Below are positions 14,543-44,262 of a stretch of 64,000 bases of DNA, one piece after another. Location: assembly GCF_003991155.1 (NCBI RefSeq), contig NZ_CP031293.1. One strand, written 5' to 3'. The DNA is from Escherichia coli (lineage in GTDB: Bacteria; Pseudomonadota; Gammaproteobacteria; Enterobacterales; Enterobacteriaceae). The position numbers and the translations under genes were made by a program. Position 1 is the first letter of the stretch. Each line of letters starts with the position of its first letter. The notes beneath the pieces were generated by a model, which was not told the DNA's origin, did no database searches, and saw nothing but the letters and a program-made list of their open reading frames with translations.

Positions 14543-14848
14543 ATGAAGGAAAAGCCGAGGGGCGTCAACCGAAAAATGACCAATGATGGTGAGGAAAAAT
14601 CAGGGAAGTTGAAAAAAACTCATCTTAATTAGAGGCGATAAAAGATTTCTCTATAGCGCAATCCACCTCGCACGTTTTGACTGATATTCTGACAACACAG
14701 CGACACCTGGGCTTATTCGAAAAACAACGTCCTGCCACCGGATGGTGATGCTAAGGCATCTGATTCGGCCTGCGCCCTCGCGTAGGCCGAATACTGGATC
14801 TGCAAAATCAACGGGTAACAAACAGATGAATCAACTCAATACGTACTT

Positions 14849-16408
14849 TTACTTGATATCTTTCACGCGCATACCGTTGATCTGTTCATCCGTGATGGTG
14901 TTACCCGCTTTGAAGTAATCAACCACGGCGTGATAAACGTAATAACCGCCCGTTGTGTTACGCGCTTTCCCTTCGGTAAAGGCGGTAAAACCATCTCCAC
15001 CATCAGCAAGGAAACTCTGGGTGGCAATAGAATAAACTGTCGCATCTTCAATGGGTTTGCCATTCAGAGTCAGTGTGATTACCCGCTGACCAACCGGTTT
15101 GCTGCTGTCGTACTTCATTTCCAGGCCTTTCGATACCTGTAAAACGCCATTACTTAAACTTGCGCCGTGTTCCATCAAACTGCGTAATTGTTTACCCGTG
15201 AGTTCCATCGTCACCAGTTCGTTGGGGAACGGGAAGGTACTGATGACGCCGCCCATCGTAATCGCCCCTGCGGGGATCTCATTGCGAATGCCGCCAGAGT
15301 TGGTTAACGCCAATTGGGTGTTTTTACCCGCCGCTACCAGTAAAGCATCAGCCGCCAGGTTCCCGAGGGAAGCCGATTCACCATAGGCACGTTTTAATTC
15401 AACCGGCGATTGCGCGACCGTTTGTTGCACCACTTCATCAAGCTTTTTATTCCAGCCGTCGATCACCTGTTTTGTTTGCGGATCGGGCTTCCACTCGTCG
15501 GCGTAAATGGTTTTAAGCTCGAAGTTTTTCACCGTAAAATCATGCGGCTTCTCTTTGTAGTCCAGTACCAGTTTACCGACATCAATCCCACCGCTGTCAG
15601 TGGAGAGGATGAGCGTATTGCCGACTTTAATCGGTTCCGGCGTACCCACATGTGCATGCCCGGTGATCAAAATATCCAGCCCTTTCACCTGACTTGCCGT
15701 CTGAATATCTTTATCCAGTGCGCGGCGCACATCTGTGCCCCCCATACTGGACTGGCGGGCCGGAACACCTTCGTGAATCAGCGCAACGGTCAAATCAACC
15801 TTGCCTTTGAGTTCATCGATATAACGTTGTAGCCATTTAATTTCATCACGCGCCTCAATACCCACTCGCGTTGCCGCAGATACCGTATCATTAAAGGCAA
15901 ATACACCGTGCAAACCAATCACGCCAATTTTCACGCCGTCTTTTTCAATGATGGTATAGGGCTTATCCCAGAATGATTTACTGCTGTTCTGATAAAAAAC
16001 ATTACCCTGCACAATCGGGAATTTTGCCTGACTCAACTGTAATAACGTATTGTCCCAGCCGTGATCAAATTCATGATTACCTATAGTGACCGCATCGAAT
16101 GGCATGGTATTCATAATATCGATAATCGCCTTGCCTTTAGTCAGGCTGCTGATATACGGCCCGGTAAAATAGTCACCCGCATCAAAAAACCAGGTCGCTT
16201 TGTTTTTAGCTTTTTCTTGTTTAACAAGCGTAGTGATATTTGCCCAGCCGCCAATATCTCGTTTACCGTCAGCAATCCACGGCACTTTATAAGGCTCTAC
16301 ATGTGCATGGAGGTCGTTGGTATAAATGATGGTGACATCTTTGGCGCAAGCCCAAAACGGCAGTGTTAATGCGATACCCGCAGCAAGCATTTTAATTTTC
16401 ATAAACAA
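14849..16408 (-). CDS. Secreted 5'-nucleotidase-family metallophosphoesterase, paralog 1
   Basis: 519 aa; N-terminal signal peptide; calcineurin-like phosphoesterase motifs [32 protein letters not shown]; C-terminal 5'-nucleotidase-type motifs (FPFPNEL, GGDGF). Confidence 0.85.
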
Positions 16409-16534
16409 TCCCTTCCAGTGAGATAAAGGATTGCTACATTACGTTCTGAAAGGCTTTTTTATGTGAGAATACTCACATCCAGAGGCGATAACTGTAGGAC
16501 AAAATCAACGACCTTATGAAATCGTTGGTGATAT

Positions 16535-17662
16535 ATGTCAAATCTGTTTGCGATTAATGTCTGTAAAACGTTCGGTTGTCGAAATTTGGGATTGGCCTCA
16601 TCGGAAGATTACAGTTGGCCAGACTATAAACTGGGTTTTCCGGCACTGCACTGCCAGGCATGCGGAAGTTACCCCCCTTTGTTTGATGAACAACAATTTC
16701 GTGACTGGTTGTCAGTTCACATGACTGCGTGTGCCATAGAAACAGGGCATTTTTGTCCATCATGCTATTGTAAAGAAAAGATTTTTTATGGCCACAACCC
16801 GCAGGGAACACAACGCGTTCAATGCCGTTCATGCAAAAAAGTCTGGACTCCGAAACAGCAGCCAGCAAGAGAAATTACGTATCCCCAGTCCATTGAAACC
16901 GTTCAACTGTTCATGCCCTTTCAAGGAGCCAGCGCAGTACAAAAGCTCTATGTTTTAGTCAGTCTTGACGCCACTCGTGGCAACATCCTTCATCTCTCCA
17001 CGAATTATACGCAACATCAGACAGGAGACAGTCTGCGGTACAGTTACAGAGGCAATACAGAACCAACTGAGCACCATAGCGATATTGTGCAGAGGGTAGA
17101 TATGCGTGAAGCGCAATTCTTGCGCCGGAGCCAGTTCGATGAAATTCAGTATGGCAGTGCTGTGCTCAAGCGCAATGGCAAGGGAGCCATACTACGCCCG
17201 GTTATCACGGCACACGGGCATTTCAGAATACTGAAAATCCGCTTTCCACATGTCAAAACGCATATCATTTCACACGAATGTTTTCTGAGAGGCGCAATTA
17301 TTACAGCCTGGGCAGATCAGTTCCGCCAACAACAAGGCGAACTTTGGTTCGTAGAAGAAGAAATCAGCGACCGTAACGCTGATATTCCCTGGCATTTTCA
17401 GGGAACGACATACCATGGTTGGTGGCAAAATCAGTGGCAACGCTGGGGGCAGGGGAATAACAGCAAGATGGTCTGCCTGCTCACAGGAGTCTCCTTAGAA
17501 AGGGGCGCAAATGTTTCTCTGGCAACCAGTCGTTGCTTTATCACATGGCTGACAGACCAACACGACTTTACCCAAAGCGCGTTATTATCCGCAGGTCGCG
17601 TAACGAAAATGCTGACCTCACTGGCGTTAAAATACAATGAATCGCTCACTCCATCTTGTTAG
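16535..17662 (+). CDS. Hypothetical Cys-rich protein (multiple CxxC pairs, possible zinc ribbon); function unknown
   Basis: 375 aa ORF; no signal peptide or TM segment; N-terminal CKTFGC, CQAC, CPSCYC, CRSC motifs; divergent from paralog 1 and upstream of paralogs 2 and 3. Confidence 0.6.
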   Translation: MSNLFAINVCKTFGCRNLGLASSEDYSWPDYKLGFPALHCQACGSYPPLFDEQQFRDWLSVHMTACAIETGHFCPSCYCKEKIFYGHNPQGTQRVQCRSCKKVWTPKQQPAREITYPQSIETVQLFMPFQGASAVQKLYVLVSLDATRGNILHLSTNYTQHQTGDSLRYSYRGNTEPTEHHSDIVQRVDMREAQFLRRSQFDEIQYGSAVLKRNGKGAILRPVITAHGHFRILKIRFPHVKTHIISHECFLRGAIITAWADQFRQQQGELWFVEEEISDRNADIPWHFQGTTYHGWWQNQWQRWGQGNNSKMVCLLTGVSLERGANVSLATSRCFITWLTDQHDFTQSALLSAGRVTKMLTSLALKYNESLTPSC

Positions 17663-17891
17663 TCAATACACTCGACAAACGACCATAAATTAATGGGATC
17701 ACTATTTCTCATTTAATTAAATATATGAATGTATGACTGAAAAATATAATCACAGTCAATGTTTAATTAATAACATTATTTGTTACTAAGATCACATAAT
17801 ACTTTCCTGACCTATGCTTACATAAAAATAAGACACGGTGTTCCTTTTATTTAAATAATTCAACCAATGTAACAACCCCTATCAAGGAGGG

Positions 17892-19445
17892 ATGATGAGA
17901 ACTGTATTTACGACTTTATCAGTCATATTCAGCGTGATGTTTTCTCACAGTATACTAGCTCAGGACGTTACTATTTATTATACGAATGATATTCACGCAC
18001 ATGTCAATCCGGCAAAAATTCCCGCTGTTGATAAGAACAGACTTGTAGGTGGTATGGCTAATATTGCAGGCATCGTTAATGAAGCGAAGAAAAAAAACAA
18101 AGATGTCTTTTTCTTTGATGCAGGCGACTATTTTACCGGTCCGTATATCAGTACCCTGACCAAAGGTGAAGCTATTATTGATATCATGAACACCATGCCC
18201 TTTGATGCGGTGTCCGTTGGTAATCACGAGTTCGATCACGGCGTGCCCAATATGGTATCTCAGTTATCAAAAGCAAAATTCCCCATTCTGCTGGGAAATA
18301 TTTACTACACCGATACAAATAAACCAGTTTGGGATCATCCGTGGACCATTATCGAAAAAGATGGTTTAAAGATTGGTGTGATTGGATTGCATGGTGCATT
18401 CGCTTTCTATGATACAGTCGCGGCAAAAGCACGTGAAGGCGTAGAAGCCAGAGACGAAATTAAATATTTAAATAAAGCACTTGCAGAATTAAAAGGTAAA
18501 GTCGACATTACCGTTTTGCTAATTCACGAAGGTGTTCCGGCGCGTCAATCAAGCTTTGGTAGTAAAGATGTGGAGCGGCTACTACAGGCAGATATTGAGA
18601 CAGCTAAAAAAGTGAATGGTGTTGATGTCTTAATTACCGGTCACGCACATGTCGGAACACCGCAACCAATAAAAGTTAATAACACATTAATTGTATCTAC
18701 CGATGCATACGGCACCGACATCGGAAAACTTGTGCTTGATTACAATCCGAAAACAAAGAAAATTGATAGTTATAATGGTGAGTTAATCACCATCTTTGCA
18801 GATCAATTTAAACCTGACACCATCGTTCAAAATACTATCGATAAATGGAGCGTAAAACTTAACAAAATAACACAGGAAGTTGTCGGCCATTCTCCCGTAG
18901 TTTTAACACGTGAGTATGGCAGTTCTTCTTCTACCGGTAATCTTATTCTGGATGCAATGATGGAAAAAACACCTGATGCCATTGCCGGATTTCAAAATAG
19001 CGGTGGGATGCGAGCTGATTTTCCTAAAGGTGATATCACACTGGGAGATGTTATTAGCACATTCCCCTTTAATAATGACCTCATCGAGATGGATTTGACG
19101 GGCCGCGATCTCAAATCGTTGATGACGCATGCAACCAATCTAACTAACGGTGTGTTACAGGTTTCAAAAAGCGTTGCGGTTGTCTATGACAGCAAAAAAC
19201 CACTCAACCAACGGTTAATCTCTTTCACCATTAACGGCAAACCCGTGGAAGATAATCAAACATATCGTATTGCCACGCACTCCTTTTGTGCCAGTGGTGG
19301 TGACGGTTTTGAAGCATTTTTGAATGGAAAAAATGTGAAGACGATACCGGGAACAACCTCGGCGGAATCTATCATCGATTATTTCAAAAATCATAAACCT
19401 GTCACCCCAGACTTAACTAAACGAGTCATGGACGTCGCCAAATAA
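17892..19445 (+). CDS. Secreted 5'-nucleotidase-family metallophosphoesterase, paralog 2
   Basis: 517 aa; signal peptide ending SILA-QD; same phosphoesterase motif set ([32 protein letters not shown]); SD aggagg upstream; the true start may be the second ATG at 17895. Confidence 0.85.
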   Translation: MMRTVFTTLSVIFSVMFSHSILAQDVTIYYTNDIHAHVNPAKIPAVDKNRLVGGMANIAGIVNEAKKKNKDVFFFDAGDYFTGPYISTLTKGEAIIDIMNTMPFDAVSVGNHEFDHGVPNMVSQLSKAKFPILLGNIYYTDTNKPVWDHPWTIIEKDGLKIGVIGLHGAFAFYDTVAAKAREGVEARDEIKYLNKALAELKGKVDITVLLIHEGVPARQSSFGSKDVERLLQADIETAKKVNGVDVLITGHAHVGTPQPIKVNNTLIVSTDAYGTDIGKLVLDYNPKTKKIDSYNGELITIFADQFKPDTIVQNTIDKWSVKLNKITQEVVGHSPVVLTREYGSSSSTGNLILDAMMEKTPDAIAGFQNSGGMRADFPKGDITLGDVISTFPFNNDLIEMDLTGRDLKSLMTHATNLTNGVLQVSKSVAVVYDSKKPLNQRLISFTINGKPVEDNQTYRIATHSFCASGGDGFEAFLNGKNVKTIPGTTSAESIIDYFKNHKPVTPDLTKRVMDVAK

Positions 19446-19485
19446 AATATCATTTATCAGTCTATATATTTAACAAGGAATGCGA

Positions 19486-21105
19486 ATGAAAACAGTGCAG
19501 CGTACTTTACTTGCCGCAACATTGCTGACTATTTTTTCGGTCTCAGTCATGGCGCAGGATGTCACGATTATTTATACAAATGATCTTCACGCTCATGTGG
19601 ATTCTTATAAAGTGCCGTATATCGCAGACGGAAAACGCGACATTGGCGGCTTTGCCAATATATCTACTTTAGTAAAACAAGAGAAAGCGAAAAATAAAGC
19701 CACCTTTTATTTTGATGCTGGAGACTATTTCACCGGCCCTTATATCAGCAGTCTGACAAAGGGCGAAGCAATAATTGACATTATGAATACCATGCCTTTT
19801 GACGCAGTATCAATCGGTAATCATGAGTTTGACCATGGCTGGGATAATGCCCTGCGACAATTAAGCAAAGCGAATTTTCCTGTTTTATTGGGCAATGTTT
19901 ATCATAAAGAGAGTGAGAACCCCTTCTGGAACAAGCCCTACACCATCCTGGAAAAAGATGGCATCAAGATTGGTATTATTGGGCTACACGGCGTATTTGC
20001 ATTTAATGATACGGTCTCGGAGCTCTCTCTCCAGGGACTCGATAATGACAATAATAACCGCTTTGATAAATCTTCCGAGACCCTTAAGAATCAGGGGATT
20101 GAAGCACGTGATGAAGTGAAGTATTTGCAGCATTATATCGACGAGTTACGTGATAAGGTTGACCTCACTGTGGCGCTGGTTCATGAAGGCGTTCCGGCGC
20201 GTCAGTCCAGCATTGGCAATACAGATGTTAGACGCGCTCTTGATAAAGATATTCAAACCGCTAGCAAGGTGAAAGGATTGGATATTCTGATTACCGGGCA
20301 TGCCCACGTCGGAACGCCAGAACCAATCAAAGTCGGCAACACCTTAATCCTTTCGACTGATAGTGGCGGTATCGATATTGGTAAATTAGTCCTTGATGTC
20401 AACCCTACAGCTCGTACCCATAAAATGAAGAGCTTTGAGCTGAAAACAGTTTATGCCGATGAATGGATACCCGATCCAACGACACAAAAAGTTATCAATG
20501 GCTGGAATAAAAAACTGGCGGATATTGTACGCCAACCAGTAGGTGAATCATCGATTGCATTAACTCGCGCCTATGGTGAGTCATCGCAACTAGGCAACCT
20601 GTTTACCGATGCAATGCTTGTCGCTGCTCCGACTGCACAGATTGCATTGATAAACTCCGGCAGCTTACGTGCGGATATAAATGCAGGCACGATTACCTTT
20701 GGCGACATTACCAGTACATTCCCCTTCAAGAATGAACTTACTGAAATGGATCTCAGCGGTAAGGATCTGCGTAACCTACTGGAACACGGGGCATCGCTTA
20801 CCAATGGCATCCTGCAAATGTCAAAAGGCGCAGAAATGCGCTATACCCCGCAGAAACCAGTAGGTCAGCGCATAGTATCTTTTAAAATTAATGGTGAAGA
20901 GATCGTTGATACGAATATTTACCATGTTGCAACAACGACTTTCCTTGCACTGGGGGGCGATGGTTTTCTGGCATTCAAAGAAGGGAAAAATGTTCAGGTC
21001 CGCGCCGGAAATAACATGTCCGATGTCGTGATCGATTATTTGAAGAAAGGCCACAAGATTACGCCTGCACAGGTAAATGAAATGCGGGTGGACGTTAGCA
21101 AATAA
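19486..21105 (+). CDS. Secreted 5'-nucleotidase-family metallophosphoesterase, paralog 3 (closest to paralog 1, with an extra low-complexity insert)
   Basis: About 539 aa from MKTVQRTLLAATLL (the ORF track starts two codons earlier at 19480); signal peptide VMA-QD; motifs as in paralog 1; insert SELSLQGLDNDNNNRFDKSSETLKNQ absent from paralogs 1 and 2. Confidence 0.85.
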   Translation: MKTVQRTLLAATLLTIFSVSVMAQDVTIIYTNDLHAHVDSYKVPYIADGKRDIGGFANISTLVKQEKAKNKATFYFDAGDYFTGPYISSLTKGEAIIDIMNTMPFDAVSIGNHEFDHGWDNALRQLSKANFPVLLGNVYHKESENPFWNKPYTILEKDGIKIGIIGLHGVFAFNDTVSELSLQGLDNDNNNRFDKSSETLKNQGIEARDEVKYLQHYIDELRDKVDLTVALVHEGVPARQSSIGNTDVRRALDKDIQTASKVKGLDILITGHAHVGTPEPIKVGNTLILSTDSGGIDIGKLVLDVNPTARTHKMKSFELKTVYADEWIPDPTTQKVINGWNKKLADIVRQPVGESSIALTRAYGESSQLGNLFTDAMLVAAPTAQIALINSGSLRADINAGTITFGDITSTFPFKNELTEMDLSGKDLRNLLEHGASLTNGILQMSKGAEMRYTPQKPVGQRIVSFKINGEEIVDTNIYHVATTTFLALGGDGFLAFKEGKNVQVRAGNNMSDVVIDYLKKGHKITPAQVNEMRVDVSK

Positions 21106-21117
21106 TAAAAAAATTAT

Positions 21118-21150
21118 AATGCCATTCATTCACTGAATGGCATTATTTTT
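21118..21150 (+). terminator. Intrinsic terminator after nucleotidase paralog 3
   Basis: Perfect palindrome aatgccattcattcactgaatggcatt followed by attttt. Confidence 0.65.
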
Positions 21151-21183
21151 CTCTAAATCAACAATAGATAATGAGATATATTT

Positions 21184-22044
21184 ATGTGTATAAAAAAGCA
21201 CGGGATAGCGTTATCGATTCTATTAATACCTTGCATTGGAAACGCTCAGGAAATTAAAAGTGAGGAAGGCTGGTTACATCAAAGCTTGAATGTCATTGGT
21301 CGCACAGACTCTCGCTTTGGCCCAAGGCTGACTAACGACCTCTACCCTGAATATACTGTAGCAGGAAGAAAAGACTGGTTTGATTTTTATGGTTATGTTG
21401 ATCTACCAAAATTCTTTGGCGTCGGCAGTCACTATGATGTTGGGATCTGGGATGAGGGCTCACCCCTATTTACGGAAATAGAACCTCGGTTTTCCATTGA
21501 CAAATTGACCGGATTAAATCTTGCGTTCGGCCCTTTTAAAGAATGGTTCATTGCAAACAACTATGTCTATGATATGGGTGACAACCAGTCATCCCGGCAA
21601 AGTACATGGTATATGGGGCTTGGTACAGATATCGACACGGGTCTACCAATTAAGCTTTCTGCCAATATATACGCCAAGTATCAGTGGCAAAACTATGGTG
21701 CCGCTAATGAAAATGAATGGGACGGATATCGATTCAAAATAAAATATAGCATTCCTCTTACCCATTTATTCGGAGGGCGATTGGTATACAATAGTTTTAC
21801 TAACTTTGATTTTGGCTCCGATCTTGCGGACAAATCACACAATAATAAACGAACCAGTAATGCTATTGCTTCAAGCCATATCCTTTCCCTGCTATATGAA
21901 CACTGGAAATTTGCATTTACACTACGTTATTTTCACAACGGTGGACAATGGAATGCTGGGGAGAAAGTTAACTTCGGAGATGGTCCATTTGAATTAAAAA
22001 ACACAGGATGGGGAACCTATACTACTATTGGTTATCAATTTTAA
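21184..22044 (+). CDS. Tsx-family outer-membrane nucleoside-specific channel protein (paralog of tsx)
   Basis: 286 aa; signal peptide; shares recalled Tsx blocks [79 protein letters not shown]; ends in a C-terminal aromatic residue (GYQF) typical of beta-barrels. Confidence 0.85.
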
Positions 22045-22221
22045 ATCAGGTGATGTTTTAGATATTTTTACTTAATGCCATTTTGTAATTGTCATAAATA
22101 ACTTCACCATTCACACTGTGAATTCATCGCTCAACACAAAAGCCCCCTTATTACCGGGGCACTGACCAAAGGCAAAATGACAATCAATCACCACCTCCGC
22201 AGGAGGTGGTTTAGAGGTGAC

Positions 22222-22250
22222 AACAAAAGCTGGCAACTGCCAGCTTTTGT
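22222..22250 (-). terminator. metL terminator hairpin (aaaagctggc-aact-gccagctttt)
   Basis: Perfect 10 bp inverted repeat flanked by A/T runs, about 12 bp downstream of the metL stop. Confidence 0.7.
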
Positions 22251-22260
22251 TCAATAATCA

Positions 22261-35606: not shown

Positions 35607-36293
35607 ATGGACGTATTCATGCAGAATATTATTCTTTTATTTATATATTTATTACTTATAGTCGTTAACCATTTCCGCTACAAATTCCTTTTGTCTGGCA
35701 ACACGGGTGAAATGATTTTATATTTTGCTAACGTATTTTTTAACCCACTTGCCTTATCATTTATTATCGCCGCAATCATCTGTATAACGATAAAAAAAAG
35801 AAGCAGCCACAGCTTTATTCGCGGCACTTGTTGGTTAATGGGATTATTTCTTATCTATAGCAGCTATACAGTGTGGGAACGACACAGCACATGGGATTAT
35901 ACTTTCCCGGGGCCAGGTATCACCGTCACAGTTCCGAGCAAACAGTGGGTTGCCAATATAGTAAAACAAGGACCAATCCTGGTGACTCGGGATGCCCATG
36001 CTATTTTAGTTATTGTTGCCTTCTCACAAAATGAACTCGGTGTGCATTCAATCGAGGAACTTACCGCGACTCAAAACGGAACTGCACAAATGCATGTTTG
36101 TGATGTTAAGGGATTTGCCTGCGCTTATCAGGAAGGAATTCAAACAATGAGTGATGGCAAAATAAGACATGCTATTTTCATGACTCTACTGGATAACACT
36201 AATTTGATACGACTGGTCGCAGCTATCGACCCAGATTATTTGGACGAATATCAAGAAGAAGTAATGAAAATGATACTTTCTGCCCATCAATAA
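35607..36293 (+). CDS. Hypothetical 3-TM membrane protein, islet paralog A
   Basis: 228 aa AT-rich ORF; three N-terminal hydrophobic helices then a soluble domain; shares motif blocks with the downstream paralog (LLSGxxG, IKK, RGxCWxxG, WxYTF, ITVTxP, MxSA); the start may be the internal ATG at 35619. Confidence 0.6.
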   Translation: MDVFMQNIILLFIYLLLIVVNHFRYKFLLSGNTGEMILYFANVFFNPLALSFIIAAIICITIKKRSSHSFIRGTCWLMGLFLIYSSYTVWERHSTWDYTFPGPGITVTVPSKQWVANIVKQGPILVTRDAHAILVIVAFSQNELGVHSIEELTATQNGTAQMHVCDVKGFACAYQEGIQTMSDGKIRHAIFMTLLDNTNLIRLVAAIDPDYLDEYQEEVMKMILSAHQ

Positions 36294-36325
36294 TCTGATG
36301 TGCATGTTAATAATAAGGGATTGAT

Positions 36326-37042
36326 ATGAGATACGTTATCTTATTAATACTATGGATAATAACTACTTTTCTTAGTCATCTTCAGCACAGCAACCTACTG
36401 TCTGGAGATCCTGGCATGGTTGGCGAGTATATCGGTTCAGTATTTCTGGGGCCGTTGTTACTTCCCGTGCTTGTGTCAGGTATTCTGTGCGCATTTATTA
36501 AAAAAACACGTAACTTCGCCAGTTTTACTCGCGGGTGCTGTTGGGTATTGGGAATCCTGCTTTTATCCAAAGTCGGCAATACGTTTCGTATGTTTACCCC
36601 GTGGCAATATACCTTTGAGAATGCTGCGATAACCGTGACTATCCCGAACCGACACTGGAATACGGTTTCCATTAGTACTAATGAAACCATTGATATAAGA
36701 AGTGAGGATAATAGCGTCTTCATTTCTGCTTTCCGCCTGCCCGCAGGACGTAGCGCCGATGACCCGCTGGAAGCGTTAAAGAAGAAGCAGCGAGACAATC
36801 TCAAGGATCAATACAATGAGGAAGCCTTCCAGTTTCATGATTGTAATGCCAAACATTTCACCTGTAAGTATCAGGATGTGTTGATAAATTTTGATGGTCA
36901 GCAGAAAAGAACCATCAGTGTTTATCTTGAAGACACCCCCAGGGCTGTGGGGATCATTGCATTAATGGCGCCAGATACGGCAGATAAATATCGCCAACAG
37001 GCGATGGAGATTATGCTTTCCGCTAAAAATGCAGTGAAGTAA
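36326..37042 (+). CDS. Hypothetical 3-TM membrane protein, islet paralog B
   Basis: 238 aa AT-rich ORF with the same topology and motif blocks as paralog A; followed by hairpin aaggcgccttgcggcgcct. Confidence 0.6.
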   Translation: MRYVILLILWIITTFLSHLQHSNLLSGDPGMVGEYIGSVFLGPLLLPVLVSGILCAFIKKTRNFASFTRGCCWVLGILLLSKVGNTFRMFTPWQYTFENAAITVTIPNRHWNTVSISTNETIDIRSEDNSVFISAFRLPAGRSADDPLEALKKKQRDNLKDQYNEEAFQFHDCNAKHFTCKYQDVLINFDGQQKRTISVYLEDTPRAVGIIALMAPDTADKYRQQAMEIMLSAKNAVK

Positions 37043-37080
37043 AAAATAAGGCGCCTTGCGGCGCCTCTACATGGAAGAGA

Positions 37081-37374
<294 letters not shown>

Positions 37375-37750
37375 TTACCGGTGACGCCTTAATAAATACG
37401 AGCGCACTTTAGTTAGCTCCGATTGTATGAAGCCGCGCTATCGCTGTCCAGCGGCACGCCTTGCAGATTACGGTTTGCCACACTTTTCATCCTTCTCCTG
37501 GTGACATAATCCACATCAATCGAAAATGTTAATAAATTTGTTGCGCGAATGATCTAACAAACATGCATCATGTACAATCAGATGGAATAAATGGCGCGAT
37601 AACGCTCATTTTATGACGAAGCACACACATTTTAAGTTCGATATTTCTCGTTTTTGCTCGTTAACGATAAGTTTACAGCATGCCTACAAGCATCGTGGAG
37701 GTCCGTGACTTTCACGCATACAACAAACATTAACTCTTCAGGATCCGATT

Positions 37751-40127
<2,377 letters not shown>

Positions 40128-41404: not shown

Positions 41405-42151
41405 ATGGCTGATTGGGTAACAGGCAAAGTCACTAAAGTGCAGAACTGGACCGACGCCCTGTTTAGTCTCACCGTTCACGCCCCCGTGCTTCCGTTTACC
41501 GCCGGGCAATTCACCAAACTTGGCCTTGAAATTGACGGCGAACGCGTCCAGCGCGCCTACTCCTATGTTAACTCGCCCGATAATCCCGATCTGGAGTTTT
41601 ACCTGGTCACCGTCCCCGATGGCAAATTAAGCCCACTACTGGCGGCACTGAAACCGGGCGATGAAGTGCAGGTGGTTAGCGAAGCAGCTGGCTTCTTTGT
41701 GCTGGATGAAGTACCAGATTGCGAAACGCTATGGATGCTGGCAACCGGTACAGCGATTGGCCCTTATCTATCGATTCTGCAACTGGGTAAAGATTTAGAT
41801 CGCTTCAAAAATCTGGTCCTGGTTCACGCCGCACGTTATGCCGCCGACTTAAGCTATTTGCCACTGATGCAAGAACTGGAAAAACGCTACGAAGGCAAAC
41901 TGCGCATTCAGACGGTGGTCAGTCGGGAAACGGCTGCGGGTTCGCTCACTGGGCGGATACCGGCGTTAATTGAAAGTGGTGAACTGGAAAGCGCGGTTGG
42001 CCTGCCGATGAATAAAGAAACCAGCCATGTGATGCTGTGCGGCAATCCACAGATGGTGCGCGATACACAACAGTTGCTGAAGGAGACCCGGCAGATGACG
42101 AAACATTTACGTCGTCGACCGGGCCATATGACAGCGGAGCATTACTGGTAA
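41405..42151 (+). CDS. fpr: Ferredoxin/flavodoxin-NADP+ reductase
   Basis: 248 aa ORF starting MADWVTGKVTKVQNWTDALFSLTVHAP with FAD-binding RAYS motif. Confidence 0.94.
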   Translation: MADWVTGKVTKVQNWTDALFSLTVHAPVLPFTAGQFTKLGLEIDGERVQRAYSYVNSPDNPDLEFYLVTVPDGKLSPLLAALKPGDEVQVVSEAAGFFVLDEVPDCETLWMLATGTAIGPYLSILQLGKDLDRFKNLVLVHAARYAADLSYLPLMQELEKRYEGKLRIQTVVSRETAAGSLTGRIPALIESGELESAVGLPMNKETSHVMLCGNPQMVRDTQQLLKETRQMTKHLRRRPGHMTAEHYW

Positions 42152-42155
42152 GCGG

Positions 42156-42584
42156 TTACTTATCGATAAACGGCACGATGAGCAAATCCGCACTCAACTT
42201 ATTGATCATCCCGCGATATGCCGGCATCAAACGGTTGATAAATGAGTGGTGATGACCACAGACAAGGAGGTCGCACTGCTCTTTTTGCATAATTTCCAGC
42301 AGTGTTTCCGGCATTTCTCCGCGTTCAATACGCAGTTTTGTCTTCGGCCATTGAATATTTTTCGTCAGTTTATACAGCTTGTTATCCGACTTATTCTTCA
42401 ACAATTGAAGAATATCTTCTGTTGCAGGGAAGTAGATACCCGGATACAACTCGCTTAAGCCATCATCAATATGAATTAACGTCAGGTGAGCGTCATTATG
42501 TCTGGCGAGCTCCAGGGCTTTATTCACCAGTAAGGCATCTTCTTCATTCCCGGAAATTGCCACGCCAATGTGTTTATAAGCCAT
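42156..42584 (-). CDS. uspD: Universal stress protein D
   Basis: 142 aa ORF starting [27 protein letters not shown]; Usp fold. Confidence 0.92.
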
Positions 42585-42610
42585 GTTTAACTCCTTCTAA
42601 AGCAACTCCA

Positions 42611-42910
42611 TCAAGCTAACGAACGCAGTGATAACTCAAAAATAATCATCTCGGCCTGGCATGAGAAGGTGAAGGCCGCATCAAGCTCAACTTGCCCTTC
42701 CAGATCCTTAATCTTATAGGCTACGCTGGCCCCTTCATCTGCAGAGGATGCAGCGGCGGCAAGCTCTTTCAGTTTGGTCATAAAGGACTCTGCTTCTTCG
42801 CGGGTGGCAAAAAAGCGCGAAAACTTACTGGTACAGTTGTCGTTATCAATCACCGTACCGATATCAATCGCACATCCTTTAGTACTGCATTTATCTACGA
42901 CATCTTTCAT
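42611..42910 (-). CDS. yiiS: UPF0381/DUF406 family protein YiiS
   Basis: 99 aa ORF starting [30 protein letters not shown]; synteny. Confidence 0.85.
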
Positions 42911-43121
42911 AGGGCACCTCTGTATATTCGCCTCTCTGTCGATTACGACTTAAGAATAATGCGCCGTTAAAGGAAGAACAAACAAGTAATGATCTTATGG
43001 ATTACCATTTTTTTTGATATTGCTTAAGGTGAAGAGTTCAGAAGGATTTTCCGGGCATTGTCATTTGCATCGTGGAAATAACAATCCCGGAAAAAAATAG
43101 CAGTAAGAGATATATTAAAGG

Positions 43122-43562
43122 TTAATTACTTGATTTATTGTCGGCTTTATACTTCACATCCTGGGTATCTTTACCATATTTATTTTCGCCTTGTGTGCCA
43201 ACAAACGCACCAAGATCGATAAGCATCATCACCAGAATCAATGTCGGGACAAAACGCCCCACCGCCCATTGCCAGACACCCGGTAAAATCGCCCAGTTAC
43301 CCGCCAGCAGCATCCACGCCACAATCATCAGAAATGCCCATGCGCCGGAACGCCCGCGATCATGCAAGCGCTTAACGGTTACTGCCGCTGTTGGCCAAAG
43401 CAAGCACACAAGGCAAAACGCCGCGGTCTGAATATCGAGTAAATTTTTACCCGCCAGTGAGAAAAGCACCAGCATGCCTGCGAACCACAGGCCTATCCAA
43501 ATCCAGAAATCACGGCGTCCAATACGCCCTTTAAATGAGAATAACCATTGCTGTATGGTCAT
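43122..43562 (-). CDS. yiiR: DUF805 inner-membrane protein YiiR
   Basis: 146 aa ORF with several hydrophobic helices; synteny. Confidence 0.85.
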   Translation of the reverse strand: MTIQQWLFSFKGRIGRRDFWIWIGLWFAGMLVLFSLAGKNLLDIQTAAFCLVCLLWPTAAVTVKRLHDRGRSGAWAFLMIVAWMLLAGNWAILPGVWQWAVGRFVPTLILVMMLIDLGAFVGTQGENKYGKDTQDVKYKADNKSSN

Positions 43563-43662
43563 GTAAGTTCCTTGATGGTTGTCTTTTCCAGGATTCTACC
43601 CTTTTGACAAGGGCGACAGATATCGTTTTAATCGGAGCCAGTCATAACAAAAGGTACTGTCA

Positions 43663-44262
43663 ATGAAGCCAGGGTGTACGCTGTTTTTTCTCTTATATTC
43701 TGCATTAACCGTTACAACAACGGCGTATGCACAAACACCAGATACGGCAACGACCGCGCCTTATCTGCTGGCTGGAGCCCCTACTTTCGATCTCTCCATC
43801 AGCCAGTTTCGAGAAGACTTTAACAGCCAGAATCCCAGCCTGCCACTGAACGAATTTCGTGCCATCGACAGCAGTCCCGACAAAGCCAATCTCACTCGTG
43901 CTGCCAGTAAAATTAACGAGAACTTGTATGCTTCTACAGCGCTGGAGCGCGGTACCTTAAAAATCAAAAGCATTCAAATGACCTGGCTACCCATCCAGGG
44001 GCCAGAGCAAAAAGCCGCGAAAGCGAAAGCTCAGGAATACATGGCAGCGGTGATCCGCACACTCACCCCATTAATGACCAAAACACAAAGCCAGAAAAAA
44101 CTGCAGTCGCTACTAACGGCGGGGAAAAACAAACGTTATTACACCGAGACAGAAGGTGCACTGCGTTATGTTGTCGCGGACAACGGCGAAAAGGGGCTGA
44201 CCTTCGCTGTTGAACCGATTAAGCTGGCGCTATCTGAATCGCTTGAAGGTTTGAATAAATGA
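43663..44262 (+). CDS. yiiQ: DUF1454 secreted protein YiiQ
   Basis: 199 aa ORF with signal peptide; synteny upstream of tpiA. Confidence 0.85.
   Translation: MKPGCTLFFLLYSALTVTTTAYAQTPDTATTAPYLLAGAPTFDLSISQFREDFNSQNPSLPLNEFRAIDSSPDKANLTRAASKINENLYASTALERGTLKIKSIQMTWLPIQGPEQKAAKAKAQEYMAAVIRTLTPLMTKTQSQKKLQSLLTAGKNKRYYTETEGALRYVVADNGEKGLTFAVEPIKLALSESLEGLNK

Follow-up and report, generated by a model that had tools for sequence, protein, structure and literature searches.

An accessory islet between metF and metL

The window analyzed here, a stretch of 64,000 nucleotides of the Escherichia coli chromosome, carries the gene order katG-metF-[islet]-metL-metB-metJ...priA-cytR. When this region was aligned with that of K-12, homology was lost after approximately position 14632, on the metF side, and resumed at the metL stop codon (22261). 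The metL-metF spacer of K-12, which is 349 bp long, is thus replaced by an islet whose GC content (0.40 to 0.46) is lower than that of its flanks (0.52 to 0.60). The islet comprises five genes: nt1 on the minus strand, a divergent gene encoding a 375-aa protein, and then the plus-strand genes nt2, nt3, and tsx2, in this order. The intergenic gaps are 34 nt between nt2 and nt3 and 78 nt between nt3 and tsx2. The main features are as follows:

14633..22260: accessory islet of ~7.6 kb, standing in place of the K-12 metL-metF spacer, with the metF promoter region retained
14849..16408, minus strand: nt1, putatively secreted UshA-superfamily metallophosphoesterase/5'-nucleotidase (RefSeq start at 16402, giving 517 aa)
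16462..16477: perfect CRP consensus TGTGAGAATACTCACA in the divergent promoter region of nt1 and the Zn-ribbon gene
16535..17662, plus strand: uncharacterized "cytoplasmic protein" of 375 aa, in which two Cys4 Zn ribbons at the N terminus are combined with an RNase-H-like (transposase/integrase) core
17758..17796: conserved block upstream of the nt2 operon, with AATGTTTAATTAATAACATT preceding the CRP-like site TGTTACTAAGATCACA
17892..19445, plus strand: nt2, putatively secreted UshA-superfamily phosphoesterase (RefSeq start at 17895, giving 516 aa)
19480..21105, plus strand: nt3, putatively secreted UshA-superfamily phosphoesterase carrying an insert of 24 aa (RefSeq start at 19486, giving 539 aa)
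21116..21146, plus strand: 13-bp stem-loop and T run, located after the stop codon of nt3 and ahead of tsx2
21184..22044, plus strand: tsx2, paralog of the Tsx family of 12-stranded outer membrane nucleoside channels, 286 aa, with a predicted mature protein starting at Q22

The three UshA-superfamily genes agree with the initial annotation of this DNA, in which the tsx2 product had been placed next to three phosphoesterases.

tsx2 encodes an intact Tsx-family channel

The tsx2 open reading frame (ORF) starts with ATG and encodes a protein of 286 residues. In a genome that is 100% identical, the RefSeq coding sequence has the same extent (861 nt) and its product is named "nucleoside-specific channel-forming protein Tsx" (WP_000334959.1). 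The Tsx2 protein scored 491.8 bits against the NCBIfam model NF011686 (residues 2 to 286), well over the curated cut-off of 311, and matched the Pfam family Channel_Tsx (PF03502) over residues 30 to 286 with an E value of 5.6e-70. The Tsx structures deposited in the PDB (1TLW, 1TLY, and 1TLZ) were matched with an E value of 1.4e-114. According to the BLASTP alignment, Tsx2 shares 65% identity with K-12 Tsx over 262 residues, including several identical blocks of 12 to 26 residues each. The long, near-identical Tsx blocks that had first drawn attention to the gene are therefore confirmed, and the similarity goes far beyond a superficial one.

The structural prediction is in line with these matches. 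The AlphaFold2 model of Tsx2 (pLDDT of 83.9) contains 12 long strands and superimposes on 1TLW chain A with a TM score of 0.93 and a root mean square deviation of 1.2 Å (Foldseek E value, 6.9e-35), the runners-up being unrelated barrels with E values of ~1e-5. Tsx2 is thus predicted to be a monomeric 12-stranded beta-barrel, as seen in 1TLW. By inspection, its N terminus resembles a Sec signal peptide: the n-region is basic, the core is hydrophobic, and a small-x-small motif marks cleavage before QE. Its C terminus, GYQF, ends with a phenylalanine, as had been pointed out initially, which is a putative outer membrane insertion signal. Judged from its sequence, tsx2 is a real, intact, and distinct paralog of the Tsx family.

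Three phosphoesterases of the UshA superfamily

The structural-genomics entry 3IVD/3IVE of the PDB, entitled "Nucleotidase," is ~98% identical to Nt1 over residues 19 to 517, and Nt2 matched 3IVD with an E value of 2.6e-190. The three paralogs are 57 to 68% identical (57% between Nt2 and Nt1 and 68% between Nt3 and Nt1), and the Nt3 insert, LSLQGLDNDNNNRFDKSSETLKNQ, is found in neither Nt1 nor Nt2. The metallophosphatase motifs DxHxH, GD, GNHE, HEG, and GHxH (as GHAHV) are intact and invariant in all three proteins, and the C-terminal motifs FPF and GGDGF, belonging to the 5'-nucleotidase-C domain, are intact as well. Both the Metallophos and the 5_nucleotid_C Pfam domains are recorded for the orthologs of Citrobacter enshiensis. 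The dN/dS of nt2 ranges from 0.04 to 0.10.

When compared with the NCBIfam equivalog models, Nt1 to Nt3 scored below the cut-offs for UshA (152 to 166 bits; cut-off, 600), CpdB (82 to 103 bits; cut-off, 486), NadN (121 to 133 bits; cut-off, 436), and SoxB (148 to 154 bits; cut-off, 550). Because all scores are far under these cut-offs, none of the three is an ortholog of a characterized enzyme. They are best regarded as uncharacterized paralogs, for one of which a crystal structure exists. The N termini of all three resemble signal peptides of the SPase-I type, and no canonical lipobox or anchor was found in any of them. Consequently, the three enzymes should be periplasmic.

Distribution and age of the islet

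The full islet, including tsx2, was found in 658 of 5426 complete E. coli genomes (12%). At a coverage of at least 80%, nt1 and the 375-aa gene were present in 1840 of these genomes and the canonical tsx gene in 5420. From the counts for the two islet portions (1840 versus 658), a short form without nt2-nt3-tsx2 is deduced for ~1180 genomes (22%), and the remainder are K-12-like with no islet. Since canonical tsx is almost universal, tsx2 is a true second copy, as expected for the distinct paralog initially proposed. Among the records listed, the four that bear the paralog each show two tsx places. The gene is also dispensable, because ~88% of E. coli strains do without it.

Carriers of the long form include APEC O1 and ATCC 25922. 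The islet region of the window is 100% identical over 7.9 kb to that of many RefSeq genomes, such as that of strain 2016C-3878, and this allele group differs by 2 to 7% at the DNA level from the APEC O1-type allele. At the protein level, the Tsx2 copies of APEC O1 and of the window are 97.9% identical. The long form is also present at the metL-metF locus of C. enshiensis, with the same gene order and a Tsx2 that is 85% identical, and Citrobacter freundii carries the short form at this locus. Between E. coli and C. enshiensis, dS is 1.7 for tsx2 and 1.27 for the flanking metF gene.

The low GC content of the islet would suggest recent horizontal acquisition. This explanation is countered by the presence of the same islet at the same locus in C. 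enshiensis, with a dS similar to that of metF, as well as by the short form of C. freundii. Because the tsx2 dS resembles that of metF and the locus is shared with C. enshiensis, these comparisons make an ancient presence of the islet followed by repeated loss at least as likely as a recent import.

Conserved elements in the promoter regions and upstream of tsx2

The CRP consensus TGTGAGAATACTCACA at positions 16462 to 16477 is the sole zero-mismatch CRP match in the window. Its half-sites are invariant and its spacer is variable in six loci, drawn from long and short forms of E. coli, C. enshiensis, and C. freundii. The second CRP-like site, TGTTACTAAGATCACA (positions 17781 to 17796), has one mismatch to the consensus. 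The block to which it belongs (17758..17796) hardly differs between E. coli and C. enshiensis, whereas the neighboring spacer has diverged and is of unequal length. No convincing match to CytR or DeoR operators was seen by eye.

Between nt3 and tsx2, the RNA fold of positions 21100 to 21200 reached -21.7 kcal/mol (z = -3.9), with a terminator-like match at 21116..21146. The stem is preserved in C. enshiensis, where both arms carry changes; the APEC O1 sequence shows two internal mismatches. No Rfam family matched the islet at an E value of 0.1 or below, and the hairpin thus does not belong to the known RNA elements. It may act as a partial terminator, an attenuator, or an mRNA-stabilizing hairpin. 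A distance of 37 nt separates its end from the tsx2 start codon, which is preceded by a weak Shine-Dalgarno sequence.

A Zn-ribbon/RNase-H-fold protein encoded beside nucleoside- or nucleotide-scavenging genes

The remaining islet gene encodes the 375-aa protein, in which no Pfam domains were found. Its family is small (123 clusters at 50% identity among 1.8 billion representatives), with AlphaFold database matches confined to Enterobacterales and Vibrionales. Profile matches of the family in the PDB were limited to cysteine-driven C2H2 zinc fingers, which we judged to be compositional and set aside. We also discarded a defense-system or prophage origin: PADLOC gave no match for tsx2, nt1, or the 375-aa protein, and PHROGs gave only a marginal match to a Zn-ribbon "transposase." Between the alleles of the window and APEC O1, the dN/dS of the 375-aa gene is 0.24. 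The gene occupies a single place in the short-form genomes listed and is syntenic at metL-metF across Escherichia and Citrobacter, and the only inverted repeat flanking it coincides with the two CRP-like palindromes. The only conserved acidic positions in the family are D145 (73%), D202 (86%), and E248 (100%), and a canonical DDE triad is not assignable from the sequence without coordinates. Given these three positions, the protein may retain residual catalysis.

Beyond the metL-metF loci, we examined seven other contexts, six of which encode homologs that are only 29 to 33% identical. In all seven, the immediate neighbor of the homolog is a gene for nucleoside or nucleotide scavenging. These neighbors include UshA-type nucleotidases, either divergent or directly upstream (gaps of 18 to 25 nt); a nucleoside phosphorylase together with a NupC-type transporter; a phosphorylase and a phosphopentomutase-like gene that accompany a NupG-type symporter; and a porin (Porin_1) grouped with genes for class B acid phosphatase and class II phosphodiesterase. 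The literature search found no publication on this Zn-ribbon/RNase-H-fold family, and searches by name on the islet genes, 3IVD, and Tsx paralogs returned nothing relevant.

We read the 375-aa protein as a possible domesticated transposase with a regulatory or other role in nucleotide scavenging. A broader proposal is that an unrecognized, transposase-derived Zn-ribbon/RNase-H family controls the islet and many scavenging loci of Enterobacterales and Vibrionales, or that these loci depend on it. We regard this proposal as tentative and rather doubtful. If it holds, the 375-aa protein would be a regulator of nt1 and of the nt2-nt3-tsx2 operon derived from an IS1-like transposase, the conserved operators in both promoter regions would be its binding sites, and Tsx2 would be an output of a new regulon distinct from the CytR/DeoR regulon that controls canonical tsx. 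A domesticated transposase regulating nucleotide scavenging would represent a new class of bacterial regulator. In our opinion, this neighbor is the more interesting and the most novel item of the islet, and tsx2 is ordinary by comparison.

Conservation of the transport residues and selection on tsx2

According to the passages of PMC6499177 dealing with transport, which credit the list to Fsihi 1993 and to Ye & van den Berg 2004, substitution of F27, G28, S217, G239, or G240 (mature numbering) abolishes nucleoside transport by K-12 Tsx. In our alignment, all five of the residues named in these passages are kept in Tsx2, as F45, G46, S231, G253, and G254. Tsx2 also retains 55 of 56 invariant columns of the family and 92 of the 98 family positions that show at least 95% conservation. 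An altered specificity of nucleoside uptake, which had been envisaged for the paralog, is therefore not indicated. The six departures among the 98 positions, compared with a median of one in other Tsx members, may reflect some shift in specificity.

The dN/dS of tsx2 is 0.094 in the comparison with the APEC O1 allele and 0.046 in that with C. enshiensis, and neither the E. coli alleles compared nor the C. enshiensis gene shows a disrupted ORF. By these ratios, tsx2 is under purifying selection. A truncated allele of 196 aa also exists, in 137 member sequences.

Alternative roles for Tsx2

Tsx2 could be a gate for the phosphorylated substrates of the neighboring enzymes, i.e., NMPs, NMN/NAD, or cyclic nucleotides, rather than for nucleosides. 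Pathway logic favors an outer membrane channel placed ahead of periplasmic enzymes, and the Porin_1 locus described above, with its acid phosphatase and phosphodiesterase genes beside a Zn-ribbon homolog, offers a parallel. Mature Tsx2 is also less acidic than K-12 Tsx (net charge of -6 versus -12), and changes at positions that are otherwise at least 90% conserved are fixed in its clade, including S22 to R40 and E40 to T58. However, the residues required for nucleoside transport and nearly all highly conserved positions are kept. Furthermore, the charge changes predicted to face the pore (+R40, -D42, loss of R32, and loss of E40), placed by strand alternation without coordinates, roughly cancel each other, and an argument for an electropositive, nucleotide-accepting pore was therefore set aside. 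Canonical Tsx is not known to pass nucleotides. Overall, we consider a substrate gate improbable.

The sequence comparison also touches on the role of Tsx as a receptor. The passages of PMC6499177 on phage T6 reception place the determinants of K-12 Tsx in segment 198-207, N249, and N254, with K or Y substitutions of N254 impairing T6 reception. Tsx2 does not match these determinants: segment 198-207 (loop L5) carries a 5-residue deletion with most of the other residues substituted, and N249 is kept but N254 is replaced by proline (N254P). In the comparison with K-12 Tsx, conservation is also lowest in the extracellular loops (54%, versus 68% in the strands). From this alignment, it is plausible that the receptor properties of Tsx2 differ from those of Tsx. 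One may ask whether tsx2 is selected mainly for surface recognition, with Tsx2 as an alternative, decoy, or resistant receptor in the face of Tsx-specific phages, colicin K, CDI toxins, or albicidin. This seems to us unlikely, slightly more so than the substrate gate. A short L5 loop and a proline at position 254 prevail in the Tsx family and are not derived, and it is K-12 Tsx that is unusual. The two E. coli alleles compared differ at seven residues, none of which is located in the extracellular loops, which argues against a role in an arms race. In addition, dN/dS values of 0.05 to 0.09 give no signal of diversifying selection, and the conserved linkage to nucleotidases points to metabolism. 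A resistant second copy could not protect the cell either, because the canonical Tsx receptor remains in all but 6 of the genomes surveyed. The pattern of alleles and conservation fits a conserved transport function, not a receptor arms race. Nonetheless, tsx2 could affect susceptibility to Tsx-dependent agents such as T6-like phages, colicin K, and albicidin. If Tsx2 substitutes for Tsx, loss of canonical tsx may give no resistance; conversely, Tsx2 may be invisible to T6.

An equally unlikely view is that tsx2 is a silent or decaying passenger insulated by the upstream terminator-like hairpin, as its position directly behind a 13-bp hairpin and T run with a poor ribosome-binding site, the truncated allele, and the absence of the gene from most E. 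coli strains might suggest, but the low dN/dS (0.05 to 0.09) has persisted to a dS of ~1.7 between E. coli and C. enshiensis, both of which keep the ORF intact, and the conservation of the hairpin through changes on both arms suggests regulated read-through rather than decay.

A proposed nucleotide- and nucleoside-scavenging islet

We favor the interpretation that tsx2 encodes a functional Tsx-type nucleoside channel and closes an accessory nucleotide/nucleoside-scavenging islet at metL-metF, an interpretation to which we assign a probability of roughly two in three (0.68). Tsx2 would be a beta-barrel that admits nucleosides and deoxynucleosides to the periplasm by diffusion at low external concentrations. 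Nucleotides, which we infer to be the substrates of the three Sec-exported UshA-superfamily phosphoesterases, would enter through general porins and then be dephosphorylated, while free nucleosides would cross the outer membrane through Tsx2. Both routes would converge on a single periplasmic pool of nucleosides taken up by core inner membrane transporters. The islet is probably induced by cAMP-CRP under carbon limitation, and tsx2 is presumed to be cotranscribed with nt2-nt3.

This arrangement differs from the dedicated uptake route for dephosphorylated products that had been advanced at first, which is topologically doubtful. Enzymes with SPase-I-type signal peptides and no lipobox or anchor should reside in the periplasm, so that the nucleosides they release would already be on the inner side of the outer membrane. 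It is more likely that Tsx2 and the enzymes feed the same periplasmic pool in parallel. Several observations count against a functional nucleoside channel: canonical Tsx is already present in the carrier strains, tsx2 is preceded by a hairpin and a weak Shine-Dalgarno sequence, a 196-aa truncated allele is in circulation, and ~88% of strains do without the gene. Any physiological benefit would concern the carriers, which include ExPEC/APEC lineages (such as APEC O1 and BEN2908) and ATCC 25922, and in which two Tsx-type pores could affect nucleoside scavenging in nutrient-poor host niches.

Comparison with known systems

The islet has been described previously. The passages of a 2026 PLoS One article (PMC12928451) devoted to it report a region named "GR 31 (metL..metF)" in APEC BEN2908 and in other ExPEC/AIEC strains, the named carriers being BEN2908, UTI89, RS218, and LF82, among others. 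ORF 1 of GR 31 is listed there as an 861-bp Tsx homolog, three ORFs are listed as UshA-like, and a coordinated system for nucleoside processing and transport is proposed. These passages thus reach independently the same inference as the one favored here. GR 31, as presented in them, is the same islet as that of the window, which carries a different allele group. In these passages, the ORF table of GR 31 omits the 375-aa protein, and the CRP sites, the hairpin, and the topology problem do not appear. Since RefSeq names the gene Tsx and the parts of PMC12928451 cited here publish both the islet and the hypothesis, tsx2 is already known. As a Tsx paralog, it matters little, being cataloged, belonging to a well-understood family, and having its scavenging hypothesis in print in those passages. 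What is added here is the conservation of the transport residues, the differences in the receptor determinants, the polymorphism of the locus with its three states, the CRP sites, the nt3-tsx2 hairpin, and the topological correction.

The enzymes of the islet share with UshA, CpdB, NadN, and 3IVD the two-domain architecture of a metallophosphatase and a 5'-nucleotidase-C domain, along with the catalytic motifs. Nt1 is essentially the same protein as 3IVD/3IVE, and all three enzymes differ from UshA, CpdB, and NadN in falling far under the respective equivalog cut-offs. The closest relatives of the 375-aa protein are transposases of the IS1/IS1595 type, which combine an InsA-like Zn ribbon with a DDE/RNase-H core. 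Unlike these, the 375-aa gene is single copy in the short-form genomes listed, is syntenic at metL-metF, and adjoins scavenging genes in every context examined.

Finally, Tsx2 resembles K-12 Tsx in its Pfam and NCBIfam family, its predicted 12-strand barrel, its signal peptide, and its C-terminal phenylalanine. The two differ at the receptor determinants, as K-12 Tsx has an L5 loop that is 5 residues longer and an asparagine at position 254, in contrast to the short L5 loop and the proline of Tsx2. They also differ in their genomic setting. In K-12, tsx is monocistronic and located between yajI and yajD, whereas tsx2 is placed after nucleotidase genes in the metL-metF islet.

Alternative states of the metL-metF locus

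Comparison of positions 14633-22260 of the window with L011 (Ecol_881), L006-L008 and L004 (K-12) separates the metL-metF locus of E. coli into three states, which differ in how many of the UshA-superfamily phosphoesterase genes (nt1, nt2 and nt3) and their neighbors they carry:

Null: K-12-like; about 66% of E. coli
Short: nt1 and the Zn-ribbon gene; about 22% of E. coli
Long: the short-state genes plus nt2-nt3-tsx2, the last encoding the Tsx-family channel paralog; 12% of E. coli

In the short form, the 3′ ends of the Zn-ribbon gene and metL overlap by 37 nt. The same nt1 protein accession (WP_000694759.1) occurs in one short-form and one long-form strain, which suggests that the locus is a recombination mosaic. 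Just within the metF-side boundary of this accessory islet lies a REP-like, GC-rich palindromic element (…CGGCCTGCGCCCTCGCGTAGGCCG…, 14730-14790). Elsewhere in the window, where GC content averages about 0.52, it falls to 0.42-0.47 at about 35000-38000 and 42000-44000, and these low-GC stretches may represent further accessory segments.

Repeats and hairpin within the islet

Palindromic elements lie between or next to the islet genes as follows:

16506-16527: inverted repeat CAACGA-N10-TCGTTG, directly 5′ of the Zn-ribbon gene start; invariant in 6 loci
17758-17777: inverted repeat AATGTT-N8-AACATT, upstream of nt2; identical in E. coli and C. enshiensis
21116-21146: AT-rich hairpin with a perfect 13-bp stem and a TTTTT run after it, between nt3 and tsx2

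In addition, the transposase-like Zn-ribbon gene is bracketed by the CRP-like regions at 16456-16477 and 17781-17828, which match each other imperfectly in inverted orientation over 16 nt (88%) and 19 nt (74%). This flanking repeat is most simply read as two predicted CRP sites, each palindromic; alternatively, it may be a relic of terminal inverted repeats. The hairpin between nt3 and tsx2 has a terminator-like appearance on either strand; it is preserved in C. enshiensis with changes on both arms, carries two mismatches in APEC O1, and may act as an attenuator, terminator or stabilizer.

Variation in nt3 and tsx2, and other Tsx paralogs

The nt3 product (gene at 19480-21105) contains a 24-residue Asn/Asp-rich insert, LSLQGLDNDNNNRFDKSSETLKNQ, at residues about 183-206, which is missing from nt1, nt2 and PDB 3IVD. 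A C-terminally truncated tsx2 allele (P0003; 196 aa, ending ...PLTHLF) is without strands 9-12; over the part that it retains, it shares 100% identity with the window allele. Since P0003 stands for 137 member sequences in a metagenome/genome protein collection, tsx2 has been inactivated in some lineages.

Second-copy Tsx paralogs are also present outside the metL-metF locus (P0004, P0117, P0110, P0077 and P0087):

L003 10001-10849: P0004, with sprT/endA on one side and a galP-like MFS gene on the other; 68% identity to tsx2

More divergent copies, labeled as E. coli, Salmonella, Enterobacter and Citrobacter, share 54-59% identity. Tsx has undergone recurrent duplication in the Enterobacteriaceae.
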